A stretch of DNA of 38,098 bases from Dirinaria sp. TL-2023a. Lineage: Eukaryota. A program made the position numbers and the translations under genes. The stretch is from assembly GCA_051941275.1 (NCBI GenBank), contig JAVEBF010000056.1, positions 1 to 38,098 on the forward strand. Reading direction: 5' to 3'. Numbering within the stretch: the stretch's first letter is position 1; each line of letters starts with the position of its first letter. Under the pieces are notes generated by a model, which was not told the origin of the DNA, did no database searches, and worked only from the letters and a program-made list of their open reading frames with translations. Positions 10,923-18,593 of this stretch are shown piece by piece.

Positions 10923-13900
10923 TCATCTGAAGTACAATATAATCATCGACACGATGAGGAATATTATGACGTAGTTTCTGAAATCTAGGGAGAATGCCTC
11001 AAGCGGGCTAGTCTGAGTTGACGCCTTTGGTGGTTTGGATTCGATTTCCTCGAGACTTGTGGCAGCTTTTGAGTTCGGGTCCAAAGGCTCCTCGCTATGT
11101 CGCTCGTTTGGACTCCGATCATTGTGGTCAACTATGTCTCGACCATCGTTCTCTGTGACAGTTGCCCCCCCTACAGTGTTTAACGAGTCTGAGCTTGTGT
11201 TGGGGGTATTCGCGTGAGAGATCGATTCGGCGGCCAATCTTCCAACGTGATCCAGATACTTTGCCACCTCTGCCTTGTCAGCTCGTTTCGCTCGTTCGTA
11301 GGGCGAGCGTCCGTAAGAGTCTTTGACTTGGACGTCCGCTCCAGCTGCGACCAGGCGTTGTACTGCTGTCATGTTGCCTTGCTCGGCCGCGAGAAATAGG
11401 AGATGTGTGATGTCCATATCATGGGCAATATCTAGGCCACGCTGTAAGAACAGGACCTGAAGAGAAGGTGAGGAGTCTTCCATTGCGCTCACGCCCCACT
11501 TATCCTTGGATTTCATGTCGGCGCCCTTGCGCAGTAGATAGCGAGCGATTGACATGCGATATTGCAAGGCTGCAATGTGTAGAGCAGTACGCCCATAATT
11601 GTCCTGAACATCGATGTTGGCACCAGCTCCGTGGAGTTTTTTCACTATGCGTAGGTGTCCCGCATGAGTAGCGAGCTGTAACGGGGTACGCCCGAGCCAG
11701 TCATCCCGTTCTTCAATGTCGATAGACTTATCGTCCGGATACGCCGAGAGGATGGAAGCAACAGCTGCCTCATCGCCTTGTGCTGCTGCTTGAGGTAGCG
11801 TGGGCTCCTCCAACGACATCCCTGTCATAGATCTCTTCGGCACTCCAAAGTCGTCTGCAAACTTCTCTTTCAGAATCCGCACGCTTCTTCTCGTTCCACT
11901 GAGCCTTGCGGTGTCAAGCGGCGTCTTTCCTCGATTATTGCGAATGTCTGTTCTGGCACCCTTACTTAAAAGCAGCTTCAACGCTGGTGAGTCATAGCTT
12001 AGTCCAGCTGCGTCGTGTACAGGAGTATTGCCATTGGAGTCTTGCAAGTCGATTCCAATACCAGGCAGATCGAGCAGGACAGCCAGCGAACGATGGCTAC
12101 CATTGATTGCAGCAGAGTGGACTGCACTCCGCCCAAAATCATCCTTGGCAGTCCAGTCAATCCCTCGATCAATCAGTTCCTGTACAATGTATACAGCATC
12201 GCTATCGGCGGCCCTCATCAAAGCATTTCCTTGGCTATATAGCGGACTTTCTCGGATATTTATGTCCGCTCCTGCGTCAAGTAGGGCTCTTACAGCCGGT
12301 AAGTTGCGCCACAGGGAGGACAATGTCAATACGGGACATCCAGAGTGATCACGATGTCCCAAGTCGACGGACGAAGCACTGACAAGAGCCCTCATTACTT
12401 CGGTATTCCTTGCTCCTGCAATGCGATGGACGGCTGTTCGCCCGTGAGTGTCTTCGGTGTTTACCGTTAGATCCGCTCGGGTTAAAAGCTTAGAGATGAC
12501 TTTCAATTGCTCGTAATTAGTGGCAAGCATGAGTGGCGTAACCTTCCATGAGCCACGTTCTCCGACGTTAGGAGCATTGACGTCCATACCAGCTTGATCA
12601 ATTAAGAGAACCGCGACTTCCTCGTGACCATGTATTATGGCGATGTGGAGAGCATTTTGACCATCGTCGTTGAACACATTGAGAGGCGCTTTCATCTGAA
12701 GAATGATCGTCATCATATCCACATTGCCGGATTGGGCAGCCCACATGAGAGGTGTCATACCGAATGCGTCTTGAATGTCCGCGTTGATGCCATCGTACAA
12801 AAGTCTGTTAGCCAGTCTCTCATAGTTGAAGAACATAGCTAGATGAAGCGGCGATCCACCGCTACGGCTACGCCATGATGCAGTGGCTTCGTCATTTGAA
12901 AACCATAGCGCCTGAATAGATGCGCTGCAGCATTGATCTTTCTTGATGAAGGCATACGATATATCCAGGACTTCGGTATCTCTTGATGCTTGGGCATGTA
13001 CACCCCAAAAGATCGAAGCATAGTCATAGAAAGGAAAAGCCCGAATGCGAGCTTCGAATTCAGCAGCTTCTTCCGCACCGTGTACAGGGCCTTGTTGGAA
13101 TTCGCTTAACTGAAGATATGCAAGAGAGATCTCTGCCATGTACTTGTGGCCATCACCGAAAAGATCACCGCTCCGCTGAGCAAAATAGCCGACAATGGTG
13201 TAGTGGGAAAAGACGATTTCGCCATTCTCGTCCAGATTTACAAGTCCAGCGCATCGCGATATGAGAGTCCCGGTGGGAATAATCTCGTCGTCGAGAATCT
13301 CATCAGCGTCGGGGGTCAAAGCTAGAGCATGCTCTACCTCGCGGATTTTCAAAGGCCGCTGCGCGTAGGCAACTAGCCTCAGCAGTGACCTTCCGTGTCC
13401 CTGGATACGGCTCATTGCGTTGTCATACGAATCGTCCAGGCCCACAGGTAGGCTGTCTAAGGCAGAACGGACTTCGCTAAACTTTAAGAGATCCGGGTTT
13501 GCTAAGGCATCCATGTGAAGTTGTGCCAACAGAAACCTTGTCGACGTCAATTTAATTCAGGGACTAGTTTCACCATCTACTCACATTTTCTGCGCCGAGC
13601 GAGTGACTGTATCCTCGATTTCCTCAGCAAATCCAGGCTTGGTATTGACGAATTTCATCAATACCGCGCTCTGCTGAGTTCTCCTTCTTACGTATCTTCT
13701 GATTGCCCGAGGCCTAGCGGAAACGTCGATTTTCAAACAGTGTAGTCCGGCGACTATAGAGGTGTCGTGACTACTATTTCCTTTCATGCAACGAGTGCCA
13801 GAATCATAGCAAGATACGCATATGGCTGAATGAACCCTCGGACACTGATGGCATAGATATCGTAAGAGTTCGAGCTTGTTCCCACAGTTACTACACTTTT

Positions 13901-15275
13901 CGCTATCCTCGTCCAAGTGCTGAGAGCCGTCTTCATCCCGGATGGCTGAGGTATCTAGTGTGACCGCAGGGATGCCTTCGAGTAACTCAGAATCATACGT
14001 TGGCAAGATTCCTTGCTTTTCCCGATCGCTTCCTTCGTCACTCGAGTCTACTTCCTCTGCACTCTCCCCCGATGTGTCGTACTCATAATCATAATTCATT
14101 CCTGCGTAGCCATCGTCGCTGTACGCGTCATCACTTTCATTCTCACTATCAGTAAGCTCCAGTGTTCCCAAGTCTTCATCAGGGACAACCGAGAGAAACG
14201 TTCTGTCAATTAGATCAAGTGGACGAGAAGTAAACATCACTTGAGGCGCACCCTCTAGCTTCATCAAGAAAACAATGATGCGCTCTCGAGCAGCTTCTTC
14301 CATAATTTCATCAAGACCATCCACTACGATGAACACACTAGAGAAGGTTGGTAAATGTGCATTGATGACTTTTAGTACTTCCTCGAGGTTAGGCTTAGTC
14401 TCATTGGTGTAATAATGCCTATCCAACAATTCTTCGAGATCAGGAGGTATTTGGCAAGCTTTGAGCTGAATGAGCTGTCGTAGCAGCGCCATTGCCAATT
14501 TGTCCACCGAATGAGTGTCTGATCTGTCATGCTTGCAGTATATGACGAACACAGCAGTATTTTGGCCTGCAGTGTCCATGCGCAGGTCATCTATGGCAGC
14601 CGATGCCAGTATAGTCTTTCCAGCTCCACCGATTGCTGAGCAGTACAGAACTCGGTGTTGCTTCTGCTTCCACGTGTTATATTCTGATGATCGGAAAAAC
14701 CACTCACACGTCCCTGGAAAAGCTTTTAAGAATTCGAGGCGCTGCTGCTCAAGAAAATAAAGAGAGGACAGCCATTCCAAGATCGATCTCAACTCACGTT
14801 TGTTGGTTACCTTGTCAATGCGTGTAACGCCTTCGTTGATGGCCAAAGTGAGCTTCAGCGAGGCGTCCTGCAGCACGATAGACACATTGTGCGATAGGCG
14901 CTGCATCTGCCTGATGTTGCGGTCGACATCCTCTTTGATGAATGGCCATGTCCAGTGTACGATCGCGCCTTTGAGCCCCTGCTTGCGCTCGATTTTGAGC
15001 GTGACTTCGGAGATCACATCCTCGATCTGCTCGATGGTGCCACCTTTCTGAGAAAGCTGGCCTACGATGTCAAGCCATGGCTCTTGCTTGTTTACTCGCT
15101 TCGCGTTGTGGTTATCGGTTTGCAGACGACTCAGGACGGACTTCAAATTATCAACTTCTGCGAGTAGCCTGTCTCGGTCCTTGCCGCCCCTCTTGTAATC
15201 ACTTAGCGTCGTTCGCACGAAGTTAGCTGCCTGTATCAAGGTCGCGACACTAGCAACAAGCCCAACTGCCTCCAT
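10923..15275 (-). CDS. Fungal NLR (STAND), about 1434 aa: HeLo-like/SesA-type N-terminus, NACHT with acidic + ZZ-finger insert, ankyrin repeats, C-terminal TM; exons 15275-13585 and 13536-10923
   Basis: N-terminal hydrophobic helix MEAVGLVASVATLIQ and WPF motif. NACHT motifs ILEWLS, GTCEWF, Walker A AIGGAGKT, Walker B FIVVDGLDE, TSR, and MFLLAQLHMD formed across the 48-nt intron. Many GxTPL ankyrin repeats follow. Confidence 0.92.
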
Positions 15276-15841: not shown

Positions 15842-17708
15842 TCACGGCTTCAATTCCCACCTTAAAGCCACTTTCCTCGGCTGCCGCATCTGCAGCGTGA
15901 TGTAGGAGATGTTACTCCCCTCAACCATACCGATGAGCATCCTCTGGGCGTCTTCAAGACTTTGCCCTTCTCGTAGAACAGGTGTTACACGATGCTTGGC
16001 GAAGAATGTTGCCATCGCAGCGACAAACTCCACTTGTGCGAACTTCTGGCCAGGACAATTGCGAGGCCCGTCCGCCCAAGGAACGAACGTGCCTCTTTGA
16101 GGGCTGATAAGACGGTCTCTCTGCGGTGATAACCCTCCATTGTCAGGTGGCATGATCCAACGTCTTGGATTCCACATCAGGGCATCTGAGCCCCAGTGCT
16201 GGGATTTTGTGTGCAATGCTTGTACATTGAGGTTGATAAACGTTTTGGGAGGTAAACAATAGGACTGTCCTTGGCTTGAGAGTTCCTGGCCGTAGGAGCC
16301 TGTCTCTTTTGGAACATACGGGAGTGATCCATAGAGACGGAGCGTTTCATACTGCGTCTCGTAAGCGCCCATACATAGCTTCAGCGCCTCTAAGAGGTTT
16401 GGATCAGGATTGGACCTACCATCACGGCAAGGCACCTTCGAAATTGCGGGAAAATCTTTTCGTATTCCCAGATTGCAGAGGTCGAGGATGCGTTTAGTAT
16501 ATCCTGAACCTCGTCTGCCAACCATTCCTGGAGATGCGGGTGTGCAGCAAGTAGCACCAACGACATAGAGATGGCATTCGCGGTTGTCTCGTGCCCGGCA
16601 AGGTTATAAATGAATATGTTGCCGAATATCTCCTTATCCGTCAGGCCAAGCTTGGAAATCTTACCGTTCGGGCCCATATTGGTGTCTTCAGAGGCTTGTA
16701 CGAGAGCACCCATCAGATTCGCAGGCCCATGCCGTTTTCCAGTACCCAGGCTACGTTCCTGGGCCAGATTTTCTGCCATGTAAGACTGGAATTCATGTAC
16801 TGCTTGGCCGAGCTGACGGAATCTGCTCGGCAGAAATTTGGACGACAGACACTGCTTAGGGATTATGTTGAAAGCGATTATGTTGTGTAAGCAGACTGAC
16901 AGAGATTCCTTGTAGCTCATACTGTGTCCTTTTGGAAGCTGCTGTACCCCTTGGTCAAATGAATATCGGACACCAGATGCGGCATGGGTCAGAACGTGGA
17001 GAGTCATGGTCTCTGTATCTTTTACTGTGTCGAATGTGCCGTGAACTCCACGTAGGGTCCATGACTTTAGCATATCGTGGGCTTGCCGTAACGCTTCGGC
17101 CCATACCACAGAGCTAGCTTTCTCGTTAAAACTAGGAGCAGTGAGCCGCCGATGGCGCTGCCAGTCATCGCCTTCAACCTGTTTACTTGGTAAGAAGTAA
17201 TGCACATTCGGCGTCAATCACGACTTACAGTAATTAGACTTGGGCCAAAAACATTGAGCTGGTCTGTCCACGAATTAGTGGCGAGTATTCGGCGGCTACA
17301 TGTAGTCGTACCGTAAATCACAGATGGCTTTACAAAGTCCTTCCTGCGTGTATAGATATCATGTGCTGCCGTGGGATCGGCGACAACAACCTCAATACTT
17401 CCAGAACTAACAATGGAGAAGAGATCGCCAAGCTCATCATGTAAAGCACACTTATCGTCAAATGTCCAGCTCGTGTATGTACATCTAGCCCACCTGCCAA
17501 GGCCAAAGGGTAGACGTTTCAAATGTAGCACAGATGGGAAGACTCTGTAGCAGATGAGCCAGAAAGGATTAAGCGGCGTTATCGGACTGACGACAATAGG
17601 CAGGCCTATTCGCCGCGCTACCACATAATTCCTCAGTAAAGTAAACAGGGTCCAAATTAACGCAGCGAGGAAAGCGATGCCGAGGCAAGTGATCAATTGA
17701 GCAGCCAT
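15842..17708 (-). CDS. Cytochrome P450, about 566 aa, 4 exons: 17708-17312, 17263-17229, 17178-16420, 16351-15842
   Basis: N-terminal TM anchor, I-helix AGHETT, K-helix ETLR, PRRW (PERF-like) and heme motif WADGPRNCPG. Spliced length 1701 nt is in frame. Confidence 0.93.
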
Positions 17709-18593
17709 CGCAGATCGTGACTTTGTAAACAGACTTAGGGAAGATTTGTCTTGATAATTGGCAGAGCTACTTAAATTGCTCCATTGACAATGCCTGTGTA
17801 CATCGTCCCGGTGGTTGCAGGATCTTTGAGTAACAAATAAGTGTAGAGCTCACTACCAGGTGAGCTAGATATTTGAGCTCGATGAGGTATAGAGTACGCG
17901 CAGCTGAGGTTCTGCCGTCCTTCTTAACCTATCAAGTGGCACAGCCCGACGAAGCCCGAGCTCTCGGCACATGCTGGATGAGAGATGTCTTGCAGCACCC
18001 CCTGGTAGTAGCGCAGTACCGTCACCACCGTCAAAGTCAGCAACCATTCCGGATTGCAAGCTTGCGCATGCTTGGCTTTGACTCGGTTTCGACACAAGAG
18101 GAGAATTGATCGTCTTTCCACAGAAGAAAGAGAGGAAATTCGGTACAAGCGAGAATGGGAAGGGAAGAAAGTCGAGATTGAAAAAGATATGCGGTGGAAA
18201 CTTCAGGGTTGGAGCAGGGTTGGAGTAGAGATTGCGATTGTTCAGCGTCCAGATGTCTCTTGCTTGATATGAGTAAAGATCATGTGCTATGTGATATGCT
18301 AGAGATACGTTGATGCTCAAATAGATCGAATTTGTATGAGCTCGGGCATGAGTTTGTTTCTCAGCCTTGCCTGACTAATTACTGTCGAAGAACGACCTTT
18401 GTCAAAATTTGGAAAAAGTCAAGCCGCTTACTTTGTTGTAGCGCCATGCATTGTCCGCAAACGTTCCACAGTGTCAAATATTTATGAACCGAGTAGAACC
18501 CGGATCGTTTTGATGTGCGAAGTATCCATCTCGTTCTCCATGTCTATTCCAGAGATCCCCTTTCCCTCTTTCCTAACACCTGCCTCATAATCC

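Follow-up and report, generated by a model that had tools for sequence, protein, structure and literature searches.

Can a NOD-like receptor (NLR) carry a folded domain and a long disordered tract inside its nucleotide-binding domain (NBD), and what might such an insert do there? The question is raised by a gene of Dirinaria sp. TL-2023a (GenBank assembly GCA_051941275.1, contig JAVEBF010000056.1), located in a stretch of 38,098 nucleotides that was analyzed over its full length and that we call the window. The gene lies on the minus strand (15275..10923), and its predicted product is a fungal receptor of the STAND (signal transduction ATPases with numerous domains)/NLR type, with an N-terminal helical domain, an NPHP3_N-type NACHT domain, ankyrin repeats, and a hydrophobic C-terminal tail. 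Such receptors are usually pictured as three blocks, with extra domains at the ends. A preliminary description of the window, made from its letters, had placed an acidic tract and a ZZ-type zinc finger within the NACHT module. The explanation that we favor as a whole, with a probability of roughly 0.55, is that of an expressed NLR in which an inserted disordered acidic tract and a two-zinc, cross-brace, ZZ-type finger would regulate the nucleotide-binding and oligomerization domain (NOD).

An insert before the last strand of the nucleotide-binding domain

The segment VMFTSRP starts at residue 346 of the protein and LKIDVSARP at residue 514, and the gap between SRP and LKIDV amounts to 161 residues. 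For comparison, the same gap is 12-15 residues long in 23 other fungal homologues of the NPHP3_N type. These come from a set of 25 PF24883 matches outside the family, from which P0033 was dropped for lack of a match to the Walker A pattern; P0020 was left out of the gap count because of a deletion at this place, and 24 other homologues were kept for the comparison of charges (see below). Among the relatives, the distance from SRP to the next strand is 153-159 residues in P0003, P0004, P0005, and P0006, and 97 in P0014. The preliminary description had announced about 150 extra residues between two NACHT segments that are normally some 10-20 residues apart, and both statements agree with these counts. 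Its sequence and coordinates of the insert are also right: CSNC starts at 13895 (residue 461) and the codon of the last His ends at 13767 (residue 503). Alignment with NACHT-ankyrin homologues bears out the insertion, which falls inside the NBD and before its last strand. Identity to the window protein is 70-80% in the NBD, 22-40% in the tract, 37-53% in the finger, and 70-84% downstream of the insert; a separate alignment gave 48% for the finger of P0003. No ZZ family is present in the precomputed Pfam domains of any of the 44 homologue matches. We lean, by a modest degree, toward a lineage-restricted module of about 145 residues, accommodated in the loop between the helix that follows TSRP and the last NBD strand.

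An exhaustive search with a profile of the family against 1.84 billion cluster representatives (E <= 0.001) matched 10 proteins. Since so few matches were found in a collection of this size, the architecture is rare. Six of the 10 (P0003, P0005, P0006, P0007, P0008, and P0009) carry the finger at the corresponding position; they are NPHP3_N proteins or fragments of such proteins, or in one case a fragment with the same downstream segment. The remaining matches include P0010, a multi-ZZ protein, and P0012, an 89-residue fragment with a similar finger; P0011 and P0013 are repeat proteins, which we regard as spurious matches to the profile. One more relative, P0004, was added through a word-based search. 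P0003 to P0006 are full-length or exon-1-length proteins sharing the architecture of the window protein. A scan of metagenomes revealed one further gene in three contigs: L001 and L002 do not differ anywhere in the 2595 nt by which they overlap, and L003 is 99.1% identical to L001. The named relatives come from Endocarpon pusillum (P0003) and from a metagenome-assembled genome (MAG) labeled Heterodermia aff. obscurata (P0014), and the RNA runs used below are labeled lichen metagenome.

The gene has two exons, with the ATG at 15275 and the stop at 10923-10925, and the spliced product has 563 + 1 (split codon) + 870 = 1434 residues, the length given in the preliminary description. The start of exon 1 (MEAVG...) agrees with the starts of the orthologues P0003, P0004, P0005, and P0014. 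RNA evidence was taken from contigs of three runs of one lichen metatranscriptome sample. These contigs are about 95-97% identical to the window; hence their source is a close relative. One contig in each of two runs (X2 and X3) skips the 48-nt intron exactly (joint 13534/13583, cut +2). The deposited NCBI model of the Endocarpon pusillum protein P0003 reads across the equivalent junction (...AAQKMFLLAQ), and in the metagenome relative L001 the matching place is also occupied by an intron. The gene is transcribed and spliced in a related organism.

Might the insert be an unrecognized intron or an error of assembly? This is barely conceivable. The one observation that leaves room for such an artefact is that 13880-14341, the region of the acidic tract, has no RNA cover, which in such shallow contig sets says nothing either way. 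The contigs span much of the gene, and 13664-13877, a region that takes in the greater part of the finger and the NBD segment beyond it, is covered without a break; the only joint seen in them is that of the 48-nt intron. That the insert is exonic, as the preliminary description implied, is thus documented by RNA over 13664-13877 and not over 13880-14341. For the acidic tract, presence in the mRNA follows from its open frame and its in-frame conservation in relatives. The 161 codons of the insert have no stop in the coding frame, against 3-22 stops in the other five frames, and the chance of such a stop-free insert is about 1e-4 given the base composition. Finally, the same architecture recurs in frame in independent assemblies and in deposited models. 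The GC content of third positions is 0.47 in the insert (13737-14219, minus strand) vs 0.56 upstream in the same exon.

The ZZ-like finger and the acidic tract

The finger has the pattern C-x2-C-x10-C-x2-C-x7-C-x2-C-x6-C-x6-H over residues 461-503, with C461, C464, C475, C478, C486, C489, C496, and H503 as candidate ligands; a further invariant Cys (C513) stands just ahead of the LKIDV strand. All eight ligands are invariant in six genes (the window gene, P0003, P0004, P0005, P0006, and L001). So are Y473, Y489, G492, and R494 (in a numbering in which C489 is also listed as a ligand), and this in a finger of which the overall identity is low across the family. The element is probably a zinc-binding knob. 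In the AlphaFold2 (AF2) model of exon 1, its predicted local distance difference test score (pLDDT) is 79-86 over residues 461-510, whereas the mean is 53 when the finger is modeled alone. This difference may be caused by packing against the NBD.

The ligands of ZZ domains are spaced as CxxC-x(9-14)-CxxC-x(4-8)-CxxC-x(6-12) followed by two more ligands, the last pair being usually H-x(2-4)-H. The finger has this eight-ligand spacing, with C..H instead of H..H as its last pair. Among Pfam families, ZZ_ADA2 (PF25299) was matched over the whole profile (E 6.1e-05, 23.5 bits), and seven of the eight family fingers matched it at E <= 1. When a profile of three fingers was compared with the sequences of the PDB, the ZZ domain of ZZZ3 came first (E 0.0074), with the ZZ domain of dystrobrevin at E 0.47; a profile of eight fingers again gave ZZZ3 first (E 0.14). 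The best match of the family profile outside the family was to residues 476-525 of P0010 (E 8e-5), a multi-ZZ protein according to Pfam (PF00569, 1.3e-15, best stretch 475-509). Like the ZZ fingers of p62, p300/CBP, ZZZ3, and Ada2 (PF00569, PF25299), which give its best though weak profile matches, the finger has three CxxC pairs at comparable spacing, with aromatic residues preceding the second pair and following the third. It differs from them in scoring below the gathering thresholds, in its C-x6-H end, and in its place inside an ATPase domain. A ZZ-type cross-brace appears to fit it better than other families do, even if the best match is subthreshold. We call it ZZ-like because it has the ligand pattern of ZZ domains and stays below the profile thresholds.

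The tract that precedes the finger is strongly acidic. Between TSRP and the first Cys of the finger (residues 353-460, 108 residues) there are 35 Asp and Glu vs 5 Lys and Arg, for a net charge of -30, in line with the D/E-rich tract that had been reported ahead of the finger. It is also rich in Ser, Thr, and Tyr, and residues 369-454 have pLDDT < 50 in the AF2 exon-1 model. The sequence of the tract drifts among relatives (see the identities above), and its length is 96-108 residues and its net charge -24 to -30 across the six proteins measured. No tandem repeats were found in 13600-14300; hence the tract did not arise by recent expansion of a microsatellite. After the insert, the exon-1 model has a strand (residues 512-517) and a helix (522-535). 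The 30 residues that follow the insert (SARPRAIRRYVRRRTQQ...) have a net charge of +5 to +8 in the family, vs -5 to +5 in the 24 other homologues. The post-insert segment RPRAIRRYVRRR is rich in Arg, and the Asp of the D-[IV]-x-x-Y motif found in many other NACHT homologues is replaced in it.

Competing readings and possible roles of the insert

Two groups of observations weigh against the reading that we favor. The first concerns the fold. No ZZ match reaches its curated cut-off (23.5 vs 27.5 bits); PF00569 itself gave no match to the window finger at E <= 1 and matched one of the eight family fingers (E 0.0092); and C-x6-H is atypical for ZZ as a last ligand pair. A Foldseek search with the isolated finger model retrieved 129 matches at E <= 10, none of which reached E <= 0.001 (best E 0.31). 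The VIA comparison gave Z >= 2 for three of 129 chains (best Z 2.5), none of them titled ZZ domain. The isolated model is poor (mean pLDDT 53), and for this reason the null results of the structure searches do not count against a ZZ fold. The ESM Atlas gave no usable match to the finger: residues 188-563 retrieved NPHP3_N clusters only, with scores up to 0.89 and none of them ZZ, which serve as leads only. The search of the PDB with the exon-1 model was of no use for the finger.

These results leave space for a real zinc module of another fold, i.e., a small treble-clef or zinc-ribbon sharing the CxxC spacing by chance. In favor of it are the subthreshold scores of all ZZ matches, the lack of a significant match in the structure searches, the atypical last ligand pair, and weak matches to competing families, DZR being matched by four and Zn_ribbon_3 by three of the eight family fingers. 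We see this as possible and yet rather unlikely, as ZZ-type families come first in the Pfam searches, when PDB sequences are searched, and among the matches of the profile outside the family. In addition, seven of the ten best Foldseek rows, all non-significant, are titled p62/p300 ZZ (four) or are Ada2-containing SAGA/HAT structures (three). Concerning the claim that the spacing of the Cys is of the ZZ type, the pattern and the top rank of ZZ in the sequence tests agree with it, although every match stays below threshold and the last pair is C-x6-H. A Pfam scan for NACHT, ZZ, and Ank retrieved PF24883 and Ank in the window and no match to PF00569.

The second group concerns the state of the insert in the relatives. 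P0007, P0008, and P0009 each lack one Cys of the finger (replaced by R, R, and W, respectively), and these fragmentary proteins look like decaying paralogues. The deposited protein of P0014 passes from its acidic tract (...GSAP) straight to CLKVDV, with no finger, which may be either a true deletion or a splice introduced by the gene caller. In L001 (5690-5720), as also in L002 and L003, there is a frame shift of one base just after LIEK and before the acidic tract, and the finger and the remainder of L001 are open in the shifted frame. Contigs that differ at 0.9% of their sites have this shift in common, which makes an error of assembly unlikely. Since the finger of several relatives is damaged or absent, the module may be dispensable. 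Furthermore, the pairing of an acidic tract with a basic helix is restricted to one clade and hence counts as one evolutionary event.

Because such damaged copies exist, a near-neutral decoration is a serious rival. In this view, an expanded low-complexity stretch and a captured finger, both doing little or nothing specific, would have been accepted by a surface loop in a gene family that evolves fast by birth and death. The site is indeed a loop, of 12-15 residues in other homologues, the family is tiny (10 matches in 1.84 billion representatives), and a ligand, the whole finger, or the frame has been lost in several relatives. Set against this are the invariance of the eight ligands and of Y473, Y489, G492, and R494 across six genes with finger identities of 37-53%, the conservation of the length and charge of the tract in all six proteins measured, and the transcription and splicing of the gene in a related organism. 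On balance, mere decoration seems unlikely to us.

If the insert is a regulatory module, as we favor, how could it act? The finger would fold into a knob where the loop is rooted, close to the last NBD strand and to the point at which the helical lid begins; its surface might dock a partner protein or, intramolecularly, the lid of the receptor itself. The acidic tract would be a tethered electrostatic regulator that shields the family-specific poly-Arg helix directly after the insert, or that is tuned by phosphorylation; such shielding or phosphorylation would then set the threshold for the opening or the oligomerization of the NOD. We infer both the docking surface and the electrostatic role. 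In the topology of P-loop domains, the insertion loop is on the side of the NBD that faces away from the nucleotide pocket. An effect on the switch would hence be indirect, and the idea of a module wired into the switch, put forward in the preliminary description, is likewise an inference.

It had also been suggested that the finger might bind N-terminal degrons, as the ZZ domain of p62 does. The latter holds an N-terminal Arg by D129, N132, D147, and D149, and needs every one of the three Asp (PMC6197226, in its available part). With the p62 register set by eye and anchored on the Cys ligands, the equivalent of D129, after the first Cys, is Ser in the window protein and S, H, G, or E across the family. 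The position after the second Cys is Gly or Asn, and from the fourth to the fifth Cys no acidic residue is conserved among the eight family fingers. As far as the groove residues are described in the available part of that paper, D129, D147, and D149 are absent from the window finger and the acidic residues are replaced in every family member. Judged from these residues, a p62-type reader of N-degrons is not supported.

The same result bears on a further alternative, already raised in the preliminary description, in which the loop or the finger would be an integrated decoy or bait, mimicking the host target of an antagonist protease, kinase, or effector, such that its modification triggers the NOD from within. 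The exon-1 model has a long, exposed, disordered loop inside the switch domain, fingers of this type bind peptides in other proteins (PMC6197226, available part), and non-canonical domains of fungal NLRs have been proposed to be integrated decoys (PMC12258605, available part). We nevertheless regard a decoy as improbable. The p62-type binding residues are absent, and the profile search gave no look-alike free-standing host protein or donor beyond the multi-ZZ P0010 and the 89-residue fragment. There is also no neighboring NLR partner, the neighbors being ordinary genes, and a tract that evolves so fast (22-40% identity) fits a composition-driven element better than specific mimicry. A more elaborate version would be a trip-wire, in which an antagonist protease or kinase acts on the acidic loop, the finger captures either the newly made chain end or the loop once it is released or modified, and the last NBD strand and the lid are uncoupled from the rest of the domain, causing the receptor to fire. 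We consider it very improbable; if true, this would be the first NLR of any kind with an integrated sensor in its nucleotide-binding domain.

How does the architecture compare with known systems? The integrated domains of plant NLRs, such as the HMA domains of RGA5 and Pik-1 and the WRKY domain of RRS1, are placed at termini or between domains, in receptors paired with a helper NLR. The window protein resembles them in having an extra non-canonical domain on an NLR, but its module is inside the NBD, and the 38-kb window has no second NLR. With fungal NACHT-ankyrin NLRs (PF24883, with a PF17111-like N-terminus) it shares the order of domains, Walker A and B, TSRP, MFLLAQLHMD, a putative winged-helix part, and the ankyrin array; it departs from them at the site of the insert, with 161 residues instead of 12-15.

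ZZ fingers were already known in fungal NLRs. A survey of Sordariales (PMC12258605) reports, in its available part, 57 NLRs with zinc fingers, of which 17 are ZZ; 52 of the 57 are C-terminal and five N-terminal to the nucleotide-binding (NB) domain, and the survey considers that they may be integrated decoys. Hence, the statement in the preliminary description that ZZ fingers of such proteins are C-terminal is consistent with this survey, which places them C- or N-terminally. The window protein also combines a ZZ-like finger with a fungal NLR, but the fingers of the survey are described, in the same part, as terminal to the NB domain. As the Pfam model of the NB domain ends at TSRP, a finger placed as here would be scored as C-terminal in such surveys. 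Some Sordariales fingers may thus directly follow the Pfam NB match, like the one described here; the part of the supplements of PMC12258605 that was searched gave no positions for individual proteins. NLR-like genes with ZZ are also mentioned in mosses (PMC7145615, available part). In the literature searched on fungal NLRs and ZZ fingers, we found no description of a ZZ finger inside a NACHT domain. What is new is the rare insertion of a ZZ-like finger and an acidic tract within the NBD, as opposed to fungal NACHT-ankyrin NLRs and ZZ fingers in fungal NLRs, which were known.

The presence of a conserved folded domain and a long disordered tract inside the NBD shows that this loop tolerates large cargo, and the insert offers a natural test case for asking whether the NOD switch can be regulated from inside the ATPase core. 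Lichen-forming fungi or lichen samples are the source of the named relatives and of the RNA runs (Endocarpon, the MAG labeled Heterodermia, and the metatranscriptomes). To our knowledge, the NLR biology of lichen-forming fungi is almost unstudied. For now, the insert would appear to be a curiosity of architecture, confined to a gene family of very few members.

The rest of the protein and its surroundings

Apart from the insert, the architecture is of an ordinary fungal NLR type (Table 1). PF24883 matches residues 188-351 over its full profile (positions 1-164; E 5.4e-30, 105.2 bits vs a cut-off of 24.8), and G217, G219, K220, D319, D322, and E323 are invariant among 29 homologues. The NBD has pLDDT 86-97 in the AF2 exon-1 model. 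In P0009, Walker B reads DELDE in place of DGLDE. At the N-terminus, PigL_N (PF17111) matches residues 3-144 with E 9.6e-06 and 25.6 bits, below its cut-off of 27.2, and more weakly in orthologues; the database name of P0003 is 'Fungal N-terminal domain-contain...'. Beyond the NBD, GPIID_WHD is weak (16.8 bits in the window and 22.5 bits in P0003, for a cut-off of 27), and the winged-helix family PF22939 is listed for orthologues in the precomputed Pfam domains. The ankyrin repeats of exon 2 match Ank_2 with E 1.9e-69. The hydrophobic end of the protein, NYVIIFLIVSMIILYFR, suggests a tail anchor, which would place the NLR on a membrane. Similar hydrophobic tails close P0003 and P0014.

The exon-1 model had seven matches in the PDB at E <= 0.001, to plant coiled-coil NLR (CNL) resistosomes and other STAND/AAA+ P-loop ATPases. 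The model of the N-terminal helical domain and the NBD aligns over about 350-380 columns with Sr35 (E 4.8e-05) and ZAR1 (1.1e-04), with low TM-scores. With exon 1 as the query, phmmer retrieved nothing from the sequences of the PDB at E <= 0.01.

Table 1. Coordinates of the NLR gene and of its parts in the window (positions of the forward strand)
Feature	Position	Strand	Residues or extent	Basis or remark
Coding exon 1	13585..15275	-	1-563 + two bases of codon 564	open reading frame (ORF), translation
N-terminal helical domain, PigL_N-like	14844..15269	-	3-144	PF17111 match, modeled long helices
NPHP3_N-type NACHT nucleotide-binding domain	14223..14714	-	188-351	Pfam PF24883
Walker A GGAGKT	14613-14630	-	216	
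Walker B VVDGLDE	14307-14327	-	317	
TSRP (sensor-1 strand)	14220-14231	-	FTSRP 348-352	
Acidic Ser/Tyr-rich tract, predicted disordered	13914..14210	-	356-454	
ZZ-like zinc finger	13737..13913	-	455-513	
Last NBD strand (LKIDV) and Arg-rich helix SARPRAIRRYVRRRTQQ	13671..13736	-		follows the insert
Intron	13537..13584	-	48 nt	GT..AG, phase 2; sequence, RNA contigs, P0003 model, L001
Coding exon 2	10923..13536	-	870 residues + stop	NOD helical/putative winged-helix part, ankyrin repeats, C-terminal tail
Ankyrin repeat array	11571..12848	-	at least P0002 residues 230-655	Pfam Ank, Ank_2, Ank_4, Ank_5
Hydrophobic C-terminal tail NYVIIFLIVSMIILYFR	10926..10976	-		translation

The 38-kb window has 15 other large ORFs, none of which is a second or partner NLR. 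They match GCP (gamma-tubulin complex), GT2, P450, WKF, chitin synthase, Opy2, or M20 peptidase, or have no match. The cytochrome P450, which is the nearest following gene on this strand, is split over several ORFs (15842-17849, minus strand), about 550 bp beyond the start codon of the NLR.

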